NCBI GenBank assembly: GCA_965247285.1
Contig: CBDFHD010000002.1
Coordinates: 1,139,772 to 1,203,771 of the forward strand
Reading direction: 5' to 3'
Length of the DNA stretch: 64,000 bases
Source: Candidatus Poribacteria bacterium
GTDB lineage: Bacteria; Poribacteria; WGA-4E; WGA-3G
Below, piece after piece: positions 3,224 through 64,000 of this stretch (the first letter of the stretch is position 1; each line of letters opens with the position of its first letter). Below the pieces are notes generated by a model. The model was not told the DNA's origin. It did not search any database and saw nothing but the letters and a program-made list of their open reading frames with translations. The position numbers were made by a program, and so were the translations under genes.

Positions 3224-3757
3224 TTAGTTTTCTTCTTGAGCATCGCGTTTTACCAAAACGATAACGCCAATCAACGCCGCCAACAAAATAAGCGAGGTAA
3301 CCTCAAACGGTAGGAGGTACTTGGTGAACAGGAGTTCACCAATGTCATAAGTAGTTGTCGTTATCGCTCCGGTCGCAGGCACTGCCGATGCCACTGCGGT
3401 GTTGTTGGGCGAATTCACTGCGATATAGATGCCTTCGGCGGCAAGAAGGATGCCTAAAATAATAGCGAATCCCTTGAGTTTCCCCCCAAGAGCCCCTTTC
3501 ACCGAGAGTGTACCCAAGTTCAGGAGCATAATCACAAAGAGAAACAGGACCATGATCGCGCCAGCATAGACAATTACTTGTACAGCCGCAACGAAATGTG
3601 CACCGAGCAGGACAAAAAGCCCCGCTTGTGCGAAAAACGTTACAATAAGCGAAAGCGCGCTATAAATCGGATGTCGAAACGAGATTACAGCAATCGCGCC
3701 AATCAGCGAGACCGCTCCAAAGAGAATAAATAGAATCTGTTCTGCATTCATCAGCAT
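3224..3757 (-). CDS. nuoJ: NADH-quinone oxidoreductase subunit J
   Basis: 177-aa membrane protein with NuoJ motif IVYAGAIMVLFLFVIMLLNLG. Not NuoI, since it has no Cys clusters. Confidence 0.85.
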   Translation of the reverse strand: MLMNAEQILFILFGAVSLIGAIAVISFRHPIYSALSLIVTFFAQAGLFVLLGAHFVAAVQVIVYAGAIMVLFLFVIMLLNLGTLSVKGALGGKLKGFAIILGILLAAEGIYIAVNSPNNTAVASAVPATGAITTTTYDIGELLFTKYLLPFEVTSLILLAALIGVIVLVKRDAQEEN

Positions 3758-3767
3758 GCCTCCTATT

Positions 3768-4949
3768 CTATTGCGTCGAGAGCGGTTGATGTGAGTTCTC
3801 GTCGCTATCCTGGATTGCAGGCTTAGGGGTCTTCATCACAAGCAGTCCTGCGACAATAGATACAACAATAAACGCGGAAACCACATTGCCGATCCCCACG
3901 ATCAGACGAGAGCCGGTCATTATCCATAAAGTGCCGGTTACGACGATTGAACTTAAGGCGACAGGCAATAGGTATTTCCAACCGAGGTTCATAAGTTGGT
4001 CATAGCGGAACCGAGGAAGTGTCCAGCGAACCCAAATAAACACGAATAGGAATATCGCCGTTTTGACGAAGAAAATACCAAACGAGATGAGTCCACTCCA
4101 GACGGGGCCACCGATATTCTCCAATCCGAAGAAGTGCCATCCACCTAAGAAGAGTGTCACCACTACAGTGGATCCAACAATCATGTTCATGTATTCTGCC
4201 ATGAAGAACATCGCGAATTTCATACTGCTGTATTCGGTGTGATATCCGGCAACAAGTTCCTGTTCCGCTTCGGCAAGGTCAAAAGGCAATCGATTTGTTT
4301 CCGCAAACATTGCCGTTGTAAATGCCAGGAATGCGGGGAAGTGAATCAGAAAATTCCAATGCCACGGATATGAACCTTGTGCCATTGCAATCTCACGAAG
4401 GCTGAGAGAACTCGTTAGCATCAGTACGCCGATGATTGCTAATCCGAGCGTTAGCTCGTAACTAATCATCTGCGCAGATGAACGTAAACCGCCCAAGAGC
4501 GAATACTTGTTATTAGATGCCCATGCCCCAAGCACGACCCCGTAGACACCGAGGGAGGTTACCGCCAAAACATACAGAATACCGATGTTGATATCCGCAA
4601 TCTGGAGCGGTATTTCGTTTCCCAATATCGTGATAGAACTCCCAAATGGCACGACTGCAATCGTAACCATCGCAGGCACCAAGAGCATCGCGGGAGCAAG
4701 CACATAGAGCGGCTTATCCACGTGATCCGGAATAAGATCTTCTTTAAAGAGGAACTTTAACCCGTCAGCAATTGGTTGTAGAATCCCTTGGAAACCGACG
4801 CGATTCGGTCCCAATCGATCCTGCATCCATCCGCTCACCCGACGTTCCGCCCAAATCATTGCCATCACACCAATAAGCAGGAGATGTACGATGATGAGAA
4901 TCTTGCCGATTGAACTGAGGAAGAAAACGAGAAGTTGTGAATTTTCCAT
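3768..4949 (-). CDS. nuoH: NADH-quinone oxidoreductase subunit H
   Basis: 393-aa polytopic membrane protein with NuoH/ND1-like conserved stretches (RRVSGWMQDRLGPNRVG, AFTTAMFAETNRLPFDLAEAEQELVAGYHTEYS). Confidence 0.9.
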   Translation of the reverse strand: MENSQLLVFFLSSIGKILIIVHLLLIGVMAMIWAERRVSGWMQDRLGPNRVGFQGILQPIADGLKFLFKEDLIPDHVDKPLYVLAPAMLLVPAMVTIAVVPFGSSITILGNEIPLQIADINIGILYVLAVTSLGVYGVVLGAWASNNKYSLLGGLRSSAQMISYELTLGLAIIGVLMLTSSLSLREIAMAQGSYPWHWNFLIHFPAFLAFTTAMFAETNRLPFDLAEAEQELVAGYHTEYSSMKFAMFFMAEYMNMIVGSTVVVTLFLGGWHFFGLENIGGPVWSGLISFGIFFVKTAIFLFVFIWVRWTLPRFRYDQLMNLGWKYLLPVALSSIVVTGTLWIMTGSRLIVGIGNVVSAFIVVSIVAGLLVMKTPKPAIQDSDENSHQPLSTQ

Positions 4950-14209: not shown

Positions 14210-17200
14210 TTACAACGTGGGTAAATTTTTGACGATCTCCACGGTTTTCAGGCTGACGGTGATGACGCGGGCAATCAGATCCACGATATACCGTGGCTCC
14301 GACTCACGGTTCGGGTCGTTCACAATCCCGCTCCGTTTGTCTATCTTGACGCGGTACTGATCCACCACCCACTCCAACGCAGAACGTGTGCCGAGCCGAT
14401 AGTCGTAGACCGCCGCAGGGATGCCGTCCAGTGTCAGGAAATCGTTGTATTTCAGCTGCGTCTTGTCTTTGGACAATTTCATCTTCTCAACCCGCCAATC
14501 TACCGTCATCCCCGGCGTTTCAATGTATTTCAGCTTGTCGTATTTGGGAACGGATTCATAGTTGACGTGGAAGTCTGCTAACGCCGCGCCTGCGTTGGCG
14601 AATCCCCAAAAGTCTTCGGCGAAGGGGATATGCGGGAGATCGCGCTTGAGGTTTGCCTCGTATTTCTCACGATAGGTGGGTTGGTGCAGGAGACCGTAGT
14701 TATAGTGGAAGATGTCCCATTTGGTGATGGTGTCTTCGCCGTAGTGGGTTCGGAATTCGGTCAATGCCCAATCGGTGATGTTCTCTTGTCGATTGGTGCC
14801 GTCCTCGTCGTAGGTGTAGAAAGGGAAGCATTGAGAATCGCCTGTAAAATGGAAATCTGGAATTGCATCAACCATCAATGTGTGAAAGGATGTGTTTGTT
14901 CTCGGGGAACTTACACAGATTGTCCTGTTTTCTGTTTCTGCATCAGATGTCGGAAAAATTGAGGGAAACACGTACACGCACTCATTCATCATCCTATGAA
15001 AATAGAGGTGCAATTTCGTAAATGGTCGGTAAAAAGATGTTCGAATATTTACATCCGAAAACTCCGCCAATGTGCCTGTTCTCAACTTGGACTTCAGGCT
15101 CCGGGTCCACTTAATCTTGGTATCATTGGTATCTATAAAATCATTGACATTAATATCTCTGTTACTTCGCCGTTCCCATTGAAACACCTGTCCATTGTAA
15201 TACTCCATCATCTGTGTCAAATTATCTGTGAGGATATTTCGGGCGAAGTTGTAAACCCATGAATCGCGGGCAGTCACTACGCCAACGCTGTAAGTTTTAA
15301 AAAGTGTTCCTTCTGCATCTCCTTCACCTTTCTTTGATGTTTCACTCCCCATCGGGAGGAAGGTGTCAAATTCAGCATGGAGTCCTTCGGTGAGCCACGT
15401 ATAGCGACTATCAGGCGTTATTTCCTGCCAATCAACGTTTTGGTGATGCTGCTTTGAATTGAGATAATTATACTTCTCTTCCTTCCGCCAAAATTCATCA
15501 ACACTGGCATAGAAGATTTCGGCTATTTTCGAGACAGGTTTTGAATCTGTACTGATGGCATTTCTCTTAATAAAAAGATTAATGCTCACCCCGATCTGAA
15601 TCCCAAAGACATTGTGTGTTGTCCCCGACAATTTTGGATTCCTACGGACGTTCCCACCGAGATCTAAAATGTAAATTGCGTCGAAATCTTCTGCGAGGTG
15701 CTTCCGCATGCCGTCAAATGCGGTTCCGTCGAGAAAACCGTTATTTGTCACAAACGTGACAACACCTTCTTTCCCAATTCTCTTTGATGCCCAACTGAAT
15801 GCTTTCACATACGGATCGTATAATTTACTTTTCAGCTGCGCGGCGGAATCTCTTACATACGTCTCAGCAACCTGCTCGTCCATTAACTCATATTTCCGAT
15901 TTTTGTTATTATCGTTTTCATTCACTTGCCCCATGTTGTAAGGTGGATTGCCGATAACGACGAACATATCCGCTGTCTTCTGTCGCTCCACGCGTTCTGT
16001 GTTCTCGCGCGTAAAGAGTTCCCCTTGCCGCTGCTCCAGTAACTCAAACGTGTCCGCAAGTGCGATCCCTTCAAACGGCAGATACGTCCCCGTCCGTTGG
16101 AAGAATTCTTGCTCGATGTTCAGACTGGCGATGTAGTAGGGCAGGAGCATCACCTCGTTGCAGTGGAGTTCGTGGCGGTATTTCGTCTCTAACACCGTGC
16201 CTTGGATGTCCTGCATGAGTCGGACGATGAAGTTGCCTGTCCCGACGAACGGATCGATGATATGAACGCCGGTGTCCGATAGCGACCGACCGAATTCGGT
16301 TTCCAAGATGTGTTCCACACTTTTCACCATGAAATCGACGATAGGCTGCGGTGTGTAGACGATGCCGTGTGTGTCCGCCACATCCTCGGAGAACCCCTGA
16401 AAGAACTTCTCGTAAAACGTATTGAGGAAGTGCTGTTTTTGGGTGAAGTCTTGGCAGAGCGTCGCGGCCTGCTCAATGGCAGTATAAAACCGATCTAAAG
16501 GCTCAAGAAACACGTCACGACTCATTGCATAACGCATGAGCGCGGCACTGACTTTTTCAATCTCGACAGCGATGATATTTCGGCTTGTAAAGTCTGACCG
16601 GTTGAAAACGGTGCGAAAGATGCGTTCGGTGAGGATATGTTGGATGAGCATCTCCTCGACGGCATCCTGTGAGAGTTCCGGGTTGATGGAGGTGCGGCAG
16701 ATTTCGTAGAAATCGGTGAACGCCTTTTTGAAGGCTGGGTCGGTTTCGTGGCGTTGCTCAATGAGTTCTTTTAGTTTGTTTGCGAGGTCGGGTACATGTT
16801 CTCTGAAGTCGGTGACAGCGGTCTGCCAGTTTTCGAGCGCGGGTGGGACGTAAGCGAATAGGTATTGGAGTGCCGCAATTAAGTTTGCGGGTGCGGTGAT
16901 CTCGAGATCAAGTGCCTCACGTCCGTTTTGATACAGGATGGCGCGTTGTGGGGTTTGGAAGAGGATATTGTCGAGCGGGTAACCAGCCTCGCGTTTCTCC
17001 TGCACGGATATTGAGAGGTCGTCGTCTATATCCTTCGCTTCCCAGTAGGCGAGCGGGAGTCCGTATTCGTCGATGATTGCGCCGTCGATAACGATGCGAT
17101 TTCCTTTTGGGGCGCGCATTGGGTATTGGGGAACGAGTGTGGCGTTCATCTGCTTTGCGCAGGCATCGAGTAAGAAAGCGAAGGGGTTGCTGACCGCGCC

Positions 17201-17329
17201 TTCGTGCGTGATGTCGTGTTTATCGTATTGCTGCAGCGTGGCGTAGTAGTCTCGGACTGCTTTGTGGCTGGGTTTGAGGGTGAGTCGCGGCATAGGGGTA
17301 TGATAACAGGTTTTTGGAAGACAAGTCAA
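14210..17329 (-). CDS. MmeI-like type IIL/IIG restriction-modification enzyme (single-chain endonuclease plus N6-adenine methyltransferase)
   Basis: 1039 aa. N-terminal PD-(D/E)xK with D-x9-EAK spacing (IIDEYGLPLAYWEAKD) as in MmeI. SAM-binding FVGTGNF and gamma-class NPPY motif (VIGNPPYNMG). No helicase motifs. Long C-terminal TRD-like region. Confidence 0.7.
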   Translation of the reverse strand: MTCLPKTCYHTPMPRLTLKPSHKAVRDYYATLQQYDKHDITHEGAVSNPFAFLLDACAKQMNATLVPQYPMRAPKGNRIVIDGAIIDEYGLPLAYWEAKDIDDDLSISVQEKREAGYPLDNILFQTPQRAILYQNGREALDLEITAPANLIAALQYLFAYVPPALENWQTAVTDFREHVPDLANKLKELIEQRHETDPAFKKAFTDFYEICRTSINPELSQDAVEEMLIQHILTERIFRTVFNRSDFTSRNIIAVEIEKVSAALMRYAMSRDVFLEPLDRFYTAIEQAATLCQDFTQKQHFLNTFYEKFFQGFSEDVADTHGIVYTPQPIVDFMVKSVEHILETEFGRSLSDTGVHIIDPFVGTGNFIVRLMQDIQGTVLETKYRHELHCNEVMLLPYYIASLNIEQEFFQRTGTYLPFEGIALADTFELLEQRQGELFTRENTERVERQKTADMFVVIGNPPYNMGQVNENDNNKNRKYELMDEQVAETYVRDSAAQLKSKLYDPYVKAFSWASKRIGKEGVVTFVTNNGFLDGTAFDGMRKHLAEDFDAIYILDLGGNVRRNPKLSGTTHNVFGIQIGVSINLFIKRNAISTDSKPVSKIAEIFYASVDEFWRKEEKYNYLNSKQHHQNVDWQEITPDSRYTWLTEGLHAEFDTFLPMGSETSKKGEGDAEGTLFKTYSVGVVTARDSWVYNFARNILTDNLTQMMEYYNGQVFQWERRSNRDINVNDFIDTNDTKIKWTRSLKSKLRTGTLAEFSDVNIRTSFYRPFTKLHLYFHRMMNECVYVFPSIFPTSDAETENRTICVSSPRTNTSFHTLMVDAIPDFHFTGDSQCFPFYTYDEDGTNRQENITDWALTEFRTHYGEDTITKWDIFHYNYGLLHQPTYREKYEANLKRDLPHIPFAEDFWGFANAGAALADFHVNYESVPKYDKLKYIETPGMTVDWRVEKMKLSKDKTQLKYNDFLTLDGIPAAVYDYRLGTRSALEWVVDQYRVKIDKRSGIVNDPNRESEPRYIVDLIARVITVSLKTVEIVKNLPTL

Positions 17330-46923: not shown

Positions 46924-47505
46924 GTGGAACGCCTTCTGAACCGGTATCATTATCCGCGTGAGCGTTTGCGGTTTGAACACCTCGTCAATTTCGGCAGAGA
47001 AAAGAAACGCGCCGACATCGTTATCCTTGACAAAGATAGGGTTGATACCCCCTATATTATCGTCGAGGTGAAAAAGCCGAAACTCCAAGACGGCAAGGCA
47101 CAACTCCGTTCCTACTGCAACGCCACTGGCGCGCCTATCGCTGTGTGGACAAACGGACAACAGATTTCGCACTACCACCGAAGAGATCCAAACTACTTTG
47201 AAGACATTACCGATATTCCTAACGCCGATCAGACTTTGGCGGATATACTCAACGAACGTTTTACCCTCAAAGATCTCATTCTTAAGGATAAACTTGCTAC
47301 GGAGCACAAATCCTTAAAGGATGTCATTTTGGAATTAGAGGACGAGGTGCTCGCCAATGCAGGCGTAGATGTCTTTGAGGAGGTTTTTAAACTTATCTTT
47401 ACCAAACTCTATGACGAATTCAAGAGTCAGGAAGACAAAATGTTTATCAACCATCTCCTACGGCACAAAATCAACACTGTTATCAAACTCACGTTTAGTA
47501 CGTAA
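46924..47505 (+). CDS. HsdR_N-like PD-(D/E)xK nuclease-domain protein (possibly a 5'-truncated fragment)
   Basis: YHYPRERLRFEHLVNFGREKKRADIVILDKD...IIVEVKKP resembles the N-terminal nuclease domain of type I restriction R subunits. The frame is open upstream to 46837 without an ATG. GTG at 46924. Confidence 0.45.
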   Translation: MERLLNRYHYPRERLRFEHLVNFGREKKRADIVILDKDRVDTPYIIVEVKKPKLQDGKAQLRSYCNATGAPIAVWTNGQQISHYHRRDPNYFEDITDIPNADQTLADILNERFTLKDLILKDKLATEHKSLKDVILELEDEVLANAGVDVFEEVFKLIFTKLYDEFKSQEDKMFINHLLRHKINTVIKLTFST

Positions 47506-52998: not shown

Positions 52999-53613
52999 AT
53001 GAAGAATATCTTGAAGAAGCTCAAGGGCACTGAAACCGCTTTGCTGACAGTCACAGAAGCCGCACAAGAGAAAATTCAGGCAGTGATAGCAACCGAAGAG
53101 GCTGAAGTTCAAGGACTACGCATTAGTATTCAGGGTAGAACTGCCACCGCTTTCCAATACAGCCTTGGTTTAGCTACTGAAGCACAAGCAGATGACATTG
53201 TTGTTGAATGTGGGAATTTTAATATACTTGTCGACGCGGAAAGCGCGCCTGACCTTAAAGGTACTGTGATTGACTATGTTGATGACCTGAATTCGAATGG
53301 GTTCAACATTGAGAACCCAAACACACCAACATGGGACAATCCAAAAGCACAAGAGGTTCAGAAGCTCATTGATGAACGGATTAATCCGGCTGTTGCGGCA
53401 CACGGTGGACAGATAGAACTCCTGAATGTCGAGGATGATGCCATATACATTCATATGGGCGGCGGCTGTCAAGGCTGCGGCATGGCAGACGTCACACTTA
53501 AACACGGCATCGAGGCAATGATTCAAGAGGTCTTTCCTGAGATTAAGCACGTGATTGACACCACCGATCACGGTGCCGGGGATGACCCGTACTATTCCCC
53601 AAGCAAGGGATAA
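52999..53613 (+). CDS. nfuA: Fe-S biogenesis protein NfuA (degenerate A-type carrier domain plus Nfu domain)
   Basis: 204 aa. N-terminal HesB-like domain without Cys ligands. C-terminal Nfu CxxC (GGGCQGCG). Confidence 0.75.
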   Translation: MKNILKKLKGTETALLTVTEAAQEKIQAVIATEEAEVQGLRISIQGRTATAFQYSLGLATEAQADDIVVECGNFNILVDAESAPDLKGTVIDYVDDLNSNGFNIENPNTPTWDNPKAQEVQKLIDERINPAVAAHGGQIELLNVEDDAIYIHMGGGCQGCGMADVTLKHGIEAMIQEVFPEIKHVIDTTDHGAGDDPYYSPSKG

Positions 53614-59579: not shown

Positions 59580-61238
59580 ATGAAACATACACTTCGGACG
59601 AAAAGCATGTCAAAGCAGAACATTATTTTTATCACTATCTCTATTTGTGTCGCATTAACTATCTTCGTATCAACACCAGCACTCTCGGTTGATTCTGGCA
59701 CACACTGGCTCATTGTGGACACAACACCAGAAGCACATGCCCATGAACTGGTAAACTCACTGATTGAACTCCTAACGACACGCGGAAAAGTACCGAGTGA
59801 GCAGATCCACCATGTTGAAGGTGACAGTGCCACGTCTGAAGAGATTCATGCCATGATTCAAGAAGTTGGGAGGCAAACCGCGGTTCAGGACACTCTGATT
59901 TTTCTATATCACGGGATAGTTACCAAACCGAGAGGCATGAACGCCATGCACCTGCTAACACAAGGAGACGAACAAGGGATCCAAGATGCCACCCTCAATG
60001 ACTGGTTCAGAGAGACAGAAAGAAAGCACACCGTTGTTATTGTCGATGGTTACACAGAGGACACAAACCTAAACGCCTACTACGCGAATCGCGAGATACT
60101 CGGCACCGCTGCACTCAACGCGATCCAATCGGCAGAGAAAGCAAACACAACAGTCTTCCTTCAGCGACTCCACGATACGCTTACGGTAGATACAACCGAT
60201 ACAAACGATAATCGGCAGCTCAGCATTATAGAAAGTTACGAACTGTTGCGAACCAATCTCGATTTTGTGGAGGGAATTCTTGCACCAACGGGTGATGTCG
60301 AAGCGGCACTGCTCAAGCTTAGCCCTGCGCTTAAGATCACAACATTCCCTGAAAGCGCAGAAATTATCATCAACGACGTAGAGGTTGGAAGCACACCGAA
60401 ACTCATCACAGAAAATCTGCAACAAGGCACCTCCACTGTAACCGTAAAGAAAGCGGGGTACATCATCCCACTGCCCAAAACAGCTGAACTGCAATTAGAA
60501 CTTGGAGAATCCGTCCATATTGGCTGGGCACTTGAGCCTATTGCTATTCACGGCACCGTTATAGGCGTGTCGGATGCGTCACCTGCTGGATCTGTTGTCT
60601 GGATTGATGGAACGGCATATCAACAGGTCGTGAAAGCTGATGGAATCTACCGTTTCGACGAGTGGAAGGATTCAGGTTCACTGAGTCTCGGTGAGACGTA
60701 TACGCTCTATGTGAAACAGGGGAACCTGAATTACGGTTCGGCAACTTTCACATTTGACGGCTATACCGACATAGCACAATCCCTGCAGCTTATTCAGCGA
60801 ACATGGTTTGAAGTCGCACAAATCGAATTCGACCGGCATAATCACCAAGGGGCTGTCACTGCTTTTCAAAATGGGATTGAAATCACGAGAGACTTTCCGC
60901 AAATGTCCCCTGACTTAACAGTTCTACTGCTCAGTTCCTTCGCTGATGCCGTAGAGAAACAAGACGTTCAGGATGTCACCTATCTCATCGTTACAGCAAA
61001 ACTCGCGGAACAACTCGGTCAACCTGCCCTTGCAAAAAAGTATTGGGAAGAGGTGAAAACAAAAGCAGACAAGGGGAGTTCCTCCGCTAAACTGGCAAAT
61101 CAACGACTGTGGCACCTGAACCGTGGACGCTATCTCTTGAATATCGGCTTGATTGTGTTGCTCGTAGTCCTATTGGCATCTGGAGCGTGGACGTTTTTTA
61201 GATACCGAAAGTCCAATCGAACCGTGCCATCAGATTGA
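59580..61238 (+). CDS. secreted, C-terminally membrane-anchored protein with PEGA domain
   Basis: 552 aa. Signal peptide, then PEGA-like segment (ITTFPESAEIIINDVEVGSTPKLITENLQQGTSTVTVKKAGY), then a C-terminal TM (LLNIGLIVLLVVLLASGAW). The N-terminal domain has a caspase-like HG motif (FLYHGIV) but no Cys. Confidence 0.55.
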   Translation: MKHTLRTKSMSKQNIIFITISICVALTIFVSTPALSVDSGTHWLIVDTTPEAHAHELVNSLIELLTTRGKVPSEQIHHVEGDSATSEEIHAMIQEVGRQTAVQDTLIFLYHGIVTKPRGMNAMHLLTQGDEQGIQDATLNDWFRETERKHTVVIVDGYTEDTNLNAYYANREILGTAALNAIQSAEKANTTVFLQRLHDTLTVDTTDTNDNRQLSIIESYELLRTNLDFVEGILAPTGDVEAALLKLSPALKITTFPESAEIIINDVEVGSTPKLITENLQQGTSTVTVKKAGYIIPLPKTAELQLELGESVHIGWALEPIAIHGTVIGVSDASPAGSVVWIDGTAYQQVVKADGIYRFDEWKDSGSLSLGETYTLYVKQGNLNYGSATFTFDGYTDIAQSLQLIQRTWFEVAQIEFDRHNHQGAVTAFQNGIEITRDFPQMSPDLTVLLLSSFADAVEKQDVQDVTYLIVTAKLAEQLGQPALAKKYWEEVKTKADKGSSSAKLANQRLWHLNRGRYLLNIGLIVLLVVLLASGAWTFFRYRKSNRTVPSD

Positions 61239-61370: not shown

Positions 61371-62453
61371 CTACGGAATCTGTATATTAGGCAAAAGTTC
61401 TTCTAATACGACCGTCGCATACCCACCCGCAGGTAGCGTAAAACTGAGACGGACTCCCCGACCATTGACGGTTTCCAACACCTCATGCAATTGCATCGGC
61501 ATCCGTAAAGGTCTACGCGTCCCCGGTAAACGGATCCCGACAACCTTACGAAAGGCTTCAAGTCGAACCCCTTCATCTGCAAGGATCGATTTCTCCAACG
61601 TGAGCACGTCGCCAGTCGGCAGACGCATCTTATATCCGAAAATCGGACCCGAAGGACTAATTTCAAATGCATCTGCTCGCGGTTGCTCAGCGGTAGCGTC
61701 CGCAACGAGAAAAGGTGCTCCGTTGTCGTGTTTCACAGCGATGTCACCTTCAAGGAGTTCGCCCAAACAAGGAGTCCGCTTTTCCAAGACGCGGTTAAAC
61801 AGGGACGCCTGATACGCCGACAAAAACAACTTGCGCAGTCGATGTGGAATACACATTACGACCTTTTCGGGGGACCTTTTTGCTAATTCTCGTTGCATAC
61901 GGCGCGCCACATCATCAATCTGTAGTGCGTCATCTGTGATTATATAACGCAAGACCGCATCCCAATCCGTCTTTACCAACGCTTTGCCAATCAGATGTGA
62001 ATCGTTTTTATTGCCAAATCGCTGTGCCCCGAAGCGATTCGGTACACCTTCAGTTGCCAACCGATCCATTACCGCTTTGACACGGGGCAGTGTATCGTGA
62101 GGAACATCGTGTACGGTTATCTCAAAACGGTTGCCTCGGAGGTGTCCTACCCGTAATTTATGGGGATGCCGCTCTGCCCATAGCACTTCAATATTCGGTT
62201 GTTCAATTTTCAAAACCCGTTCCGGTAACACCCCTTCGACAGATAGCACCTGTGTTGTGACTGCGTTCCTATCCTTCAAGCCGGCGTAACCAAACTGCTG
62301 GGGGCGTACCTGTAAATCCCGTGCAATTCGGTTAATTGCTTCCAAGGTGCTGAGATTCCGTTTCCGAATAGCGAAAAAGGTATGCGTTCCCGTTCCGGTA
62401 GGTTCATAAAGCGGTAGTTCCTCGACAATAAAATTTTCAGGTTCTTTAATCAT
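61371..62453 (-). CDS. truD: tRNA pseudouridine(13) synthase
   Basis: About 360 aa from MIKEPENFIVEELP with AAGAGGA as SD. TruD family (catalytic-Asp region FGYAGLKDRNAVTTQ). Confidence 0.8.
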   Translation of the reverse strand: MIKEPENFIVEELPLYEPTGTGTHTFFAIRKRNLSTLEAINRIARDLQVRPQQFGYAGLKDRNAVTTQVLSVEGVLPERVLKIEQPNIEVLWAERHPHKLRVGHLRGNRFEITVHDVPHDTLPRVKAVMDRLATEGVPNRFGAQRFGNKNDSHLIGKALVKTDWDAVLRYIITDDALQIDDVARRMQRELAKRSPEKVVMCIPHRLRKLFLSAYQASLFNRVLEKRTPCLGELLEGDIAVKHDNGAPFLVADATAEQPRADAFEISPSGPIFGYKMRLPTGDVLTLEKSILADEGVRLEAFRKVVGIRLPGTRRPLRMPMQLHEVLETVNGRGVRLSFTLPAGGYATVVLEELLPNIQIP

Positions 62454-62598
62454 CTGATTCCTCTTATCCCCCTTAATTTCTCTGCCATTATAGTCATCAT
62501 TCACCAATTTGTCAAACTGTGGAAAACAGAAATATTTCCTTGCCACAGGCACTTAATTGTGGTATACTTAACAGTGAAACACCAAAAAGGAGGGGAAG

Positions 62599-63858
62599 AT
62601 GGCTTACATAATTAGCGAACCGTGTGTTGATGTAATGGACACCGCATGCGTTGATGTCTGTCCGGTTGACTGTATACACACCACTGAAGGCGAAAAGCAG
62701 CTTTACATCAACCCAGATGAATGTATTGACTGCGCTGCATGCGAACCTGTGTGTCCGGTTGACGCGATCTCCATGCAAAGTGATGTCCCCAGCGAATGGG
62801 AACCGTTTATTGAGATAAACCGTAAATTTTTTGAGACCTTCGTTAAACCTGAAACCGCGGACGCAGGAGCCGATGAAACAGGAAAAACTAAACAAGGGAA
62901 GCAACAAGGTATACCGGAAGAATTTGTGCAAATACCGGAGGTCCCAGACTCAAGCCTTCGCGCACCATACAATGTCTTAATAATGCTCTTACAACCGCTT
63001 CTCGGTGCCTTTTCAGCGAAGTTTAAAGCACGGCTTGAGGAGATGGCTGGCAACACGCTCGTCTTTAGTTCTGCGGTATCAACAGGTATCAATAGCCTCA
63101 TTAACTTGACGCTTTATCCGCTTATCCTCTTCTTCATCGGAGTCAAAGGACAAAGTGCCAACCTTTTTACGAGTGAAGGCAACCTGATGATTTTCTTGGG
63201 GATCATCATCGCTATTTCTGAAGGTATTTACCGGTTTAAAGACGAGTTCAATTCCACAGCTGAACAACCGCGCTACGGTGCCGCCTTCTACGGATGGTTC
63301 CCCTCACTCATTGCAACCCCACTCCTAATTGGCTTACGCTCAGCACTCGTCGGTCAGCGAAAAGAAGAACGCACAACGATGCCCGGAGCGGTCCTCACAG
63401 ATGGCAAGATCTATTCTGACGATGTACGGGAACGTTACAGACGCTACGGCATGATAAATCGCCTTACAGAACAGGCGAATCACTACGAGGTCGAAATCGA
63501 ATTTCCGAGGTGGGTGCCGAATTCTGTCGCGAAACAAGAGCATGAACTCCCTGATAGAATGCCGGACTACACGTATGAAATTCAACTCAGTTCGCCGTAT
63601 GTCCCCGGTGAATCCCTCACGCCTGAAAGTATCTTGACTGTGCAAACACAATTGGATGATCCAAGGTTTGCCTCTGTTGTAGGTCGCACAAGCTCATTCC
63701 CGAACGGTTTCACAAATATCATGCCGATCTCAGGACAACCAGAAGATTTTCAGGCAACTTATCGGAATAAAGTATTGACGATTATCGTCTCCAAAAGCGG
63801 TACATGCGAATCACTCGGACTTGAACCAACAGTGCATTATGCCAAACTGAAGGGATAG
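62599..63858 (+). CDS. 7Fe (FdxA-type) ferredoxin fused to a multi-pass membrane domain and a C-terminal beta-rich module
   Basis: First roughly 105 aa match Azotobacter-type FdxA (AYIISEPCVDVMDTACVDVCPVDCIH...CIDCAACEPVCPVDAI). They are followed by 3-4 TM helices and a roughly 110-aa C-terminal domain with faint Hsp20/CS-like character. SD AAAGGAGGGGAAG lies before the ATG. Confidence 0.55.
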   Translation: MAYIISEPCVDVMDTACVDVCPVDCIHTTEGEKQLYINPDECIDCAACEPVCPVDAISMQSDVPSEWEPFIEINRKFFETFVKPETADAGADETGKTKQGKQQGIPEEFVQIPEVPDSSLRAPYNVLIMLLQPLLGAFSAKFKARLEEMAGNTLVFSSAVSTGINSLINLTLYPLILFFIGVKGQSANLFTSEGNLMIFLGIIIAISEGIYRFKDEFNSTAEQPRYGAAFYGWFPSLIATPLLIGLRSALVGQRKEERTTMPGAVLTDGKIYSDDVRERYRRYGMINRLTEQANHYEVEIEFPRWVPNSVAKQEHELPDRMPDYTYEIQLSSPYVPGESLTPESILTVQTQLDDPRFASVVGRTSSFPNGFTNIMPISGQPEDFQATYRNKVLTIIVSKSGTCESLGLEPTVHYAKLKG

Positions 63859-63879: not shown

Positions 63880-64000
63880 ATGGTTGATAAAGAAACGCTT
63901 GTCGATTGGGATAAGCGTTACCTCTGGCACCCGTTCACGCAAATGCAGGATTGGCTGGCGGAGGAGCCAGTCATCATTGAACGGGGTGACGGATGCTACC
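63880..64000 (+). CDS. bioA: adenosylmethionine-8-amino-7-oxononanoate aminotransferase (partial, N-terminus only)
   Basis: [25 protein letters not shown]... is the typical BioA N-terminus. Runs off the window. Confidence 0.6.

Follow-up and report, generated by a model that had tools for sequence, protein, structure and literature searches.

Ferredoxins are usually regarded as diffusible electron carriers, and alpha-crystallin domains (ACDs) are usually regarded as chaperone modules. RnfB carries an N-terminal membrane anchor together with Fe-S domains, and the chlorosome proteins CsmI, CsmJ and CsmX fuse a [2Fe-2S] ferredoxin to an envelope-binding domain. NCB5OR consists of cytochrome b5, a CS domain and a b5 reductase, such that the CS domain is placed between redox domains. 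Here we describe a gene, found in a 64,000-nucleotide stretch of DNA from Candidatus Poribacteria bacterium (GenBank assembly GCA_965247285.1, contig CBDFHD010000002.1, positions 1,139,772 to 1,203,771 of the forward strand; hereafter 'the window'), whose single protein chain joins an FdxA-type 7Fe ferredoxin to a hydrophobic module and a divergent ACD-like domain. Literature searches for ferredoxin-ACD fusions, for membrane-anchored ferredoxins, and for ferredoxin or biotin in Poribacteria found nothing on this family.

The gene resides immediately upstream of bioA, and its relatives in other poribacterial lineages reside next to bioW, which may make the electron requirements of biotin synthesis relevant to its function. 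The radical S-adenosylmethionine (radical-SAM) enzyme BioB requires a protein electron donor, which is flavodoxin with Fpr in E. coli and is unknown in mycobacteria (PMC11099021). Lineage-specific Fe-S accessory proteins, exemplified by actinobacterial BsaP, also have their genes in bio operons (PMC11099021). Pimelate can arise by O2-dependent cleavage of fatty-acyl chains in two routes, one through the P450 BioI and one through the diiron oxygenase BioE, and the pairing of BioI with BioW has been reported as confined to Bacillaceae and Staphylococcaceae (PMC12704756). Because of this restricted distribution, the source of the BioW substrate in Poribacteria is unaccounted for by the routes described there.

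Conservation and integrity of the fusion gene

An initial annotation, made by a model from the DNA sequence alone, proposed that this open reading frame (ORF) fuses a ferredoxin to a membrane domain and a C-terminal beta-rich module, and the start codon, strand, length and coordinates of the ORF (Table 1) are exactly as given there. Scanning one genome from each species yielded 144 loci that encode a relative of the fusion protein. All locus counts below use the best 80 of these, nearly all of which carry the Candidatus Poribacteria label. In each of the 80 loci, a single ORF of 419-433 aa encodes the 7Fe Cys motif together with the C-terminal module, which bears out the proposal that the fusion is expressed as one chain. 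Region identities and Cys invariance were derived from an alignment of 81 orthologs, with identities given as pairwise means. All eight Cys residues are invariant in this alignment, and the length of the linker that follows the ferredoxin differs by whole codons only (14-16 aa). Given that every locus retains a single ORF and that the indels comprise whole codons, a frameshift or missed stop is excluded, including near positions 62910-62930, where a frameshift had been suggested as a matter to check.

When residues 108-419 were used as the query, 173 proteins were recovered. Of the 120 best, which are 61-97% identical to the query, almost all are 407-433 aa in length and include Fer4. The closest protein match is 97% identical and the ortholog at locus L001 is 94% identical, and these values indicate that the window DNA is poribacterial. 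Clustered at 90% identity, the family forms more than 170 groups, and it is represented in 144 species-level genomes. Judged from these sequences, the fusion constitutes a conserved family rather than a one-off event.

A possible objection is that separate genes for a ferredoxin and a membrane protein have been joined artificially, through a sequencing frameshift or an overlooked stop codon. A few database entries are indeed split (L081, L088, L089) or begin at Met58 (P0066, P0100). However, this explanation is refuted by the 80 independent genomes with intact ORFs and whole-codon indels. The split loci (L081, 6388-7786; L088, 5528-6843; L089, 5094-6462; assemblies ERZ25039492 and ERZ25039532) were considered as natural two-gene versions and rejected, since their frame changes occur at differing positions and in long-read assemblies. 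The split in L088 reads into an Arg-rich, out-of-frame linker, and the split protein of L081 has a fused cluster mate that is at least 90% identical. All three stem from a single series of long-read metagenome assemblies. The splits are thus artefacts or pseudogenes, which were set aside as evidence in either direction, and they give rise to false pairs of 'ferredoxin + hypothetical protein' in databases. A universal division of the orthologs into two genes, which the initial annotation had named as refuting the fusion, is not observed.

Expression signals upstream of the gene are likewise conserved. The strong Shine-Dalgarno (SD) sequence noted previously, AAGGAGGGG, is present in the window, and an SD-like core precedes the gene in 76 of the 80 loci. 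A promoter arrangement of the form TTGCYA-N17-TGTGGTATAMT occurs at the same position and with the same spacing upstream of the gene across diverse orthologous loci. No conserved palindrome was found in the 80 upstream regions, in which the promoter alone is conserved.

The ferredoxin domain

Pfam models Fer4 and Fer4_7 both match the fusion protein above their thresholds. The NCBIfam model FdxA_Actino aligns with residues 1-98 at 120.5 bits, narrowly under its equivalog cutoff of 125 bits, and two further equivalogs also score below their cutoffs (FdxA_Protbact, 87 versus 135; FdxA_fam, 49.2 versus 65). The best match among PDB sequences is the 7Fe ferredoxin 2v2k (E 1.7e-28), followed by 1bc6 and 1h98, whereas variants of Azotobacter FdI match at E values of ~1e-17 to 1e-18. 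Thus, the description of this domain as a textbook Azotobacter-type ferredoxin is correct with regard to its 7Fe FdxA type, although the domain is nearer to the actinobacterial, Bacillus and Thermus proteins than to Azotobacter FdI.

The Cys pattern, C9-x7-C17-x3-C21P followed by C42xxC45xxC48xxxC52P, is present in 80 of 80 orthologs. This pattern indicates a ferredoxin of the [3Fe-4S]+[4Fe-4S] type, in which the motif for the first cluster lacks its second Cys. By analogy with A. vinelandii FdI, C9, C17 and C52 presumably bind the [3Fe-4S] cluster and C21, C42, C45 and C48 the [4Fe-4S] cluster, which leaves C25 free. Identity within the domain is 80-86%, with the core at 86%.

The C-terminal domain and tail

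The weakly Hsp20- or CS-like character that had been suspected at the C-terminus is borne out by structure prediction, fold comparison and profile alignment. AlphaFold2 (AF2), supplied with a diverse alignment of 41 sequences, modelled this domain with a predicted local distance difference test (pLDDT) score of 86.5 and a predicted TM-score (pTM) of 0.79. In the model, seven main strands follow a short helix. Only this domain of the protein was modelled well, and only after distant homologs had joined the alignment. A Foldseek search against the PDB returned small heat-shock proteins (sHSPs) for all of its top 36 matches, with probabilities of ~1.0 and target-normalised TM-scores of at most 0.64, but with E-values of only 1e-3 to 1e-2. 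CS domains (USP19, Sgt1, p23) rank below the sHSPs in the same search. An hhalign comparison with four canonical sHSPs, whose sequences were entered by hand, gave Prob 95.2% and an E-value of 2.6e-8 over 90 aligned columns.

The family profile matches only three PDB sequences, all of them sHSPs and all sub-threshold (E 0.1-0.66). Pfam HSP20 (PF00011) does not match the window domain even at E<=10, and it matches only 2 of 41 family members, with a best E of 0.011. One stand-alone relative bears the NCBI name 'Hsp20/alpha crystallin family protein'. The domain also carries its own hallmarks: a leading ERxRRYG helix (ERYRRYG here), EFPR, an insertion of ~15 aa with the motif LPDxMPDY (LPDRMPDY here), and SFPxxF. 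Its identity among the orthologs is 70%. By its modelled fold, the C-terminal domain is a divergent ACD homolog that shares this fold with the sHSPs.

The tail of the poribacterial clade holds a conserved L404-x-L406-E409 element, located 6 aa past the last strand, followed by an invariant HYAKLKG. The L-x-L element would lie at the place of the IXI oligomerisation motif of sHSPs. Many distant family members stop right after the last strand.

The hydrophobic module and its predicted topology

Between the two terminal domains lies a module for which four helices, H1 to H4, are predicted. Of residues 110-419, for which a domain search had been suggested, the C-terminal part is assigned to the sHSP-like fold as described above. 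The hydrophobic module has no relative in Pfam, NCBIfam or PDB sequences, whether searched alone or as a profile. Its signature across the family reads QPlLGAL, K, E, F, T..N...YP, G, E...RlR, YG. The module carries no conserved Cys or His, and thus no cofactor site is evident within it. All four helices are 75-80% identical among the orthologs, and the loop between H2 and H3 is 48% identical. This loop and the linker are the least conserved segments of the protein. In distant homologs, long Ala/Pro-rich linkers take the place of the acidic linker.

The four helices differ in character. H1 is amphipathic (QPLLGAF..K..E), H2 and H3 are of a grade expected for transmembrane (TM) helices, and H4 is amphipathic and basic. 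Mean Kyte-Doolittle hydropathy over 21 diverse homologs is 1.70 for the H2 core, 1.56 for H3, 0.99 for H1 and 0.69 for H4. Counts of Lys plus Arg are 2.9 for loop 1, 0.6 for loop 2 and 4.1 for loop 3, and H4 is also rich in basic residues. An arrangement in which H2 and H3 form a hairpin flanked by two interfacial helices is therefore favoured by the positive-inside rule, which it would fit better than four TM helices. The earlier proposal of three to four TM helices was accurate in that the hydrophobic middle is predicted to have four helices, of which only two are clearly TM-grade.

No signal or Tat motif was seen in the sequence at the N-terminus. Because the chain begins with the Fe-S domain and has no such motif, the ferredoxin and the C-terminal domain are both expected to be cytoplasmic. 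Whether the module spans the membrane two or four times, these two domains would be on the same side.

Genomic context and a probable link to biotin synthesis

In the sponge-associated Poribacteria, bioA is found downstream of the fusion gene in 79 of 80 loci, whereas truD, the other neighbour that had been named correctly, is upstream in 51 of 80 only. The identity of bioA was assessed with its ortholog in L001, which scores 548 bits against TIGR00508 (cutoff 405). The bioA gene overlaps the 3' end of the fusion gene in 26 loci and follows it after a gap of 17-22 nt in 24 more, such that it lies within 25 nt of the stop codon or overlaps it in 50 of 75 scorable loci. No plus-strand terminator was found between the two genes in the window. 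On the basis of promoter, SD, spacing and the lack of a terminator, the fusion gene and bioA are predicted to form an operon in sponge Poribacteria. No other bio gene occurs within 10 kb in the sponge loci, and no bioW occurs within 6 kb.

The nearest relatives beyond the sponge clade carry an RRYGM / DDPRF / FPGSF signature and derive from other poribacterial lineages, including metagenome-assembled genomes from hot-spring and marine sources. In all four non-sponge poribacterial contexts that were examined, a BioW gene is located directly upstream and in the same direction, with gaps of 128 nt (L084/85), 4 nt (L092), 132 nt (L094/95) and 6 nt (L096). Among these loci the other flanking genes are wholly different, and pairwise identity between the BioW proteins is just 46-59%. 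A bio neighbour has thus been kept through divergence and rearrangement, which makes a functional tie to the biotin pathway probable. By a rough estimate, the chance that a random gene abuts one of about six bio genes is ~0.3%. The adjacency to bioA and bioW is the strongest functional lead available.

An oxidoreductase of the GFO/IDH/MocA family is present beside the pair of BioW and module genes in three of the four non-sponge contexts, on varying sides: upstream of BioW in L084/L085/L094/L095 and downstream of the module gene in L092. The oxidoreductase may belong to the cluster as its third component.

The wider family

An exhaustive HMMER search of 1.84 billion cluster representatives identified 95 representatives of the family. 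The sponge-poribacterial clade accounts for essentially one full-length representative among these, plus a few fragments. A scan of metagenome contigs with the non-sponge subfamily found no relatives. The tally of architectures is skewed by fragmentary metagenome genes, and fractions of members that appear to lack a ferredoxin are consequently not quantitative.

Distant relatives with the full set of modules are 29-37% identical, and they also place the ferredoxin first, but they use other types of ferredoxin. An Alvin/YfhL-type 2[4Fe-4S] ferredoxin is fused N-terminally in P0124, P0126, P0127, P0139 and P0140, an FdxA-type ferredoxin is found in the distant relative P0132, and P0165 and P0177 carry a short single-cluster type. 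Some members (P0155, P0162, P0168, P0181) lack the hydrophobic module and are soluble proteins composed of ferredoxin, linker and ACD. In P0164 and P0204, the ACD follows the N-terminal ferredoxin and precedes a C-terminal polyferredoxin that bears four CxxCxxCxxxCP motifs. Members without a ferredoxin exist as well, such as P0280, in which a Pro/Ala-rich N-terminal region precedes the ACD. Across these sequences, the invariant unit of the family is the RRYG-ACD. Because this ACD has repeatedly been joined to ferredoxins that are not homologous to each other, the selected property appears to be generic electron transfer rather than a tuned sensor.

Two further features were observed among family members. 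At L074, the fusion gene has a second copy (~3555-3992, plus strand), degenerate and with an internal deletion, ~2.4 kb upstream of the intact gene. This copy joins ferredoxin residues 1-33 straight to H4, continues through the first half of the ACD and then stops early, and its 140-aa product is also present in databases as P0123. Many members outside the sponge clade have C-termini that end in Ala-Ala (RAAA, QAAA, HAA, GGAA, IRAA), as seen in P0127, P0128, P0129, P0132, P0133, P0135, P0160, P0165 and P0184. These ends resemble degrons of the ssrA/ClpX type and may therefore subject the proteins to regulated proteolysis.

Proposed function and alternative explanations

The architecture of the protein is close to certain, its role as an electron carrier is likely, and biotin synthesis is a plausible sink for the electrons. 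The account that we favour, which we hold at slightly less than even confidence, is that the protein is a membrane-anchored ferredoxin, probably oligomerised through its ACD, that provides low-potential electrons most likely to biotin synthesis. H2 and H3 would form a hairpin in the membrane, with H1 and H4 lying on its cytoplasmic face, and the flexibly tethered ferredoxin and the ACD would both face the cytoplasm. The ACD might dimerise, oligomerise or dock a partner, as such domains do in sHSPs and CS-domain proteins, possibly with help from the L-x-L tail. The outcome would be a localised, multivalent ferredoxin platform at the membrane, from which the ferredoxin could shuttle low-potential electrons to an acceptor. 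Because the gene shares an operon with bioA in sponge symbionts and directly follows bioW in other poribacterial lineages, the likeliest sink would be a biotin step that requires reductant, either radical-SAM BioB or an O2-dependent acyl cleavage that supplies pimelate to BioW. A scaffolding function within electron-transfer proteins is favoured over that of a single sensor because the ACD pairs with varied ferredoxins and polyferredoxins. A bolder version, which we regard as decidedly improbable, holds that the protein is a dedicated and hitherto unrecognised component of biotin synthesis in Poribacteria, where it would either serve BioB as its missing physiological reductant and assembly platform or take part in a new membrane-associated route to the pimelate that BioW activates, and that the RRYG-ACD is a ferredoxin-specific scaffold for oligomeric electron-transfer assemblies in several bacterial lineages.

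Several observations weigh against the favoured account. The protein's insertion into the membrane, its complement of clusters and its oligomeric state are predictions. The AlphaFold modelling that the initial annotation recommended was confident for the C-terminal domain, but the full-length model, built from a shallow alignment of close orthologs, has a pLDDT of 43, and the helix prediction rests on this low-confidence model. Genes for BioB, a P450 or a diiron oxygenase were not found within 6-10 kb at any locus examined, and a Pfam sweep of most window ORFs of at least 150 aa found no bioB, bioF, bioD, bioW, P450 or diiron oxygenase. The bioW-linked protein of L092 (P0135) has no ferredoxin, so the bio linkage may concern the hydrophobic module and ACD rather than electron transfer. 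The remaining points also favour a rival explanation, in which the protein is a general housekeeping ferredoxin, tethered to serve other acceptors (e.g. IspG/IspH, desaturases or other radical-SAM enzymes), and its bio neighbours represent inherited synteny. BioA and BioW are not redox enzymes and need no reductant. Every bio-linked gene comes from one phylum, Poribacteria, and one ancestral bioW-X-bioA arrangement may have given rise to the linkage. The locus of the Alvin-type subfamily (glutaredoxin ... [gene] - GNAT or DHO_dh - CarD - IspD) is without bio genes, and further family members adjoin SDR/hydrolase or TatD genes. In addition, no BirA-type operator (TGTnAAC-N12-18-GTTnACA), the only regulator type considered, was found in the 80 upstream regions. 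Nevertheless, we consider this explanation unlikely, though far from negligible, because BioW has been kept upstream in all four non-sponge contexts despite reshuffled flanks and substantial BioW divergence, because bioA is retained far more often than truD, with junctions that frequently overlap or span ~20 nt, and because a chance neighbour from a pathway of roughly six genes among several thousand is, by our rough estimate, improbable.

Two other proposals assign the protein a function beyond that of an electron carrier. It could be a membrane stress protein that senses redox state or oxygen, in which oxidation or loss of a cluster switches the ACD to an sHSP-like holdase or membrane-stabilising state, either in the manner of redox-regulated chaperones or in cis, as a holdase that shields the O2-labile ferredoxin and re-matures it. 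By the comparisons above, the C-terminal domain is genuinely homologous to ACDs, and the many members with an ACD but no ferredoxin suggest that this domain can act independently of a ferredoxin. Membrane association is known for some sHSPs, and hypoxia strongly induces both fdxA and the alpha-crystallin gene acr in M. tuberculosis; these precedents serve as leads only. We find this stress-related role rather improbable, as the interchange of three unrelated ferredoxin types and the polyferredoxin extensions are more simply explained by generic electron transfer, the promoter is of a constitutive-looking sigma-70 type, the neighbours are housekeeping and biotin genes rather than stress genes, the Pfam HSP20 threshold is unmet, and the N-terminal region of sHSPs is absent. 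The protein might instead define a new route to the pimeloyl precursor, wherein the hydrophobic module and ACD engage acyl chains or their carrier, the ferredoxin powers an oxidative cleavage, and BioW activates the resulting pimelate. BioW is directly upstream in all non-sponge contexts, even where the member lacks a ferredoxin, its substrate in Poribacteria is unexplained by the routes reviewed in PMC12704756, and a membrane location would suit a lipid-derived substrate. This route is nonetheless a long shot: neither the module nor the ACD offers a conserved His, Cys or carboxylate cluster for an oxygen-activating metal site, the sponge gene resides beside bioA with no bioW within 6 kb, and no oxygenase is nearby.

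Other features of the window

The positions of the fusion gene, its parts and its immediate neighbours are collected in Table 1. The divergent truD gene lies outside the proposed system.

Table 1. Coordinates in the window of the fusion gene, its expression signals, its protein segments and the adjacent genes.
Feature	Position	Strand	Basis or remarks
Sigma-70-like promoter, TTGCCA-17-TATACT with extended -10 TG	62540..62568	+	10/12 matches plus TG
Shine-Dalgarno sequence, AAGGAGGGG	62587..62595	+	3-5 nt 5' of ATG
Fusion coding sequence, 419 aa, ATG start	62599..63858	+	Ferredoxin, hydrophobic module and ACD-like domain in a single chain
FdxA-type 7Fe ferredoxin domain, aa 1-84	62599..62850	+	Pfam, NCBIfam and PDB sequence matches
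Acidic flexible linker, aa 85-100	62851..62898	+	44% identity, 14-16 aa
Pre-membrane segment KxQGIPEEFVQIP...LRxP, aa 101-123	62899..62967	+	74% identity, 9 invariant columns
Four-helix hydrophobic module, aa 124-250	62968..63348	+	Predicted helices, hydropathy, charge, hydrophobic moment
Connector, aa 251-275	63349..63423	+	60% identity; low to moderate pLDDT
Divergent alpha-crystallin (HSP20-like) beta-sandwich (modelled), aa 276-400	63424..63798	+	AF2, Foldseek, hhalign
C-terminal tail, aa 401-419	63799..63855	+	77% identity; invariant L406, E409, H413-G419
bioA start (adenosylmethionine-8-amino-7-oxononanoate transaminase), cut by window end	63880..64000	+	21 nt past stop
truD, divergent upstream neighbour	61371..62552	-	Pfam TruD, E 6e-91

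Two other parts of the window relate to Fe-S proteins. A gene for an NfuA-type Fe-S carrier (Fe-S_biosyn + NifU; 52999-53613, plus strand) lies 9 kb upstream of the fusion gene and adjoins a sigma-70 gene, an arrangement that is syntenic in L093. A nuo operon occupies ~0.6-12 kb, and its minus-strand NuoH gene (3768-4949) is separated by 10 nt from NuoJ (3224-3757), which leaves no room for nuoI, whose product is the ferredoxin-like 2x[4Fe-4S] subunit of complex I. A regular-expression scan of the 64 kb found CxxCxxCxxxCP in no ORF except the ferredoxin-fusion gene, and nuoI is presumably encoded elsewhere.

The window also encodes a 1039-aa Type ISP restriction-modification enzyme (Type_ISP_C, ISP_coupler, N6_Mtase; 14210-17329, minus strand) and an isolated ORF that resembles an HSDR_N_2 fragment (46924-47505, plus strand). 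Between a TolC/HlyD/ABC efflux cluster and truD is a gene for a 552-aa PEGA-domain protein (59580-61238, plus strand) that starts with a signal-like segment and has a TM segment at its C-terminus; this gene is kept in only 36 of 80 loci.

Comparison with known systems

If the proposed function is correct, the fusion would demonstrate scaffolded and localised flow of low-potential electrons, in a family that often includes a membrane anchor, makes use of three ferredoxin types and sometimes adds polyferredoxin extensions. The HSP20 fold would thereby gain a new job. The pairing with bioA and bioW offers a handle on the reductant of BioB outside the enterobacterial flavodoxin paradigm and on the pimelate source of BioW outside Bacillaceae and Staphylococcaceae. 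Poribacteria are uncultured and abundant sponge symbionts, for which a marker of biotin metabolism is ecologically relevant. Moreover, the RRYG-ACD and the QPLLGAL hydrophobic module could be defined as two new families.

The end domains belong to known superfamilies, whereas no paper was found that describes their combination, and the middle module and the ACD-like domain are without a Pfam or NCBIfam model. The ferredoxin domain shares its Cys pattern over 84 residues with FdxA-type 7Fe ferredoxins (M. smegmatis FdxA 2v2k, 1bc6, 1h98 and A. vinelandii FdI). However, the known 7Fe ferredoxins are soluble proteins of 77-107 aa, and the domain described here opens a chain of 419 aa that goes on to a hydrophobic module and an ACD. 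The C-terminal domain is predicted to form the same beta-sandwich as the sHSPs (S. pombe Hsp16 3w1z, Xanthomonas HspA 3gla, Sulfolobus Hsp20.1 4rzk and M. jannaschii Hsp16.5), with detectable homology, but it differs from them in lacking the N-terminal region, in its own signature, and in its setting within a ferredoxin and membrane architecture.

Among proteins with a similar use of this fold, CS/p23-domain proteins employ an HSP20-like beta-sandwich as an interaction or scaffold module near redox domains. NCB5OR differs in that it uses heme and flavin rather than Fe-S clusters and is eukaryotic; CS domains also rank under ACDs as matches to the window domain, and there is no sign that the architectures share descent. 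What RnfB and CsmI/J/X have in common with the fusion protein is the principle of localising electron delivery by attaching a ferredoxin-like carrier to the membrane or envelope. They carry another type of ferredoxin, an unrelated anchor and no ACD; the window gene has no Rnf or chlorosome cluster, and RnfB models give only weak matches at the level of Fer4. Neither by sequence nor by gene context is the fusion protein related to NCB5OR, RnfB or CsmI/J/X. BsaP is likewise a lineage-specific Fe-S protein encoded in a biotin operon and thus sets a precedent for dedicated Fe-S helpers (PMC11099021). It is a soluble protein of ~80 aa with an atypical three-Cys site, encoded beside bioB, whereas the poribacterial fusion protein carries a ferredoxin of the canonical 7Fe type together with hydrophobic and ACD modules, is encoded beside bioA or bioW, and would not be expected to resemble BsaP in sequence.

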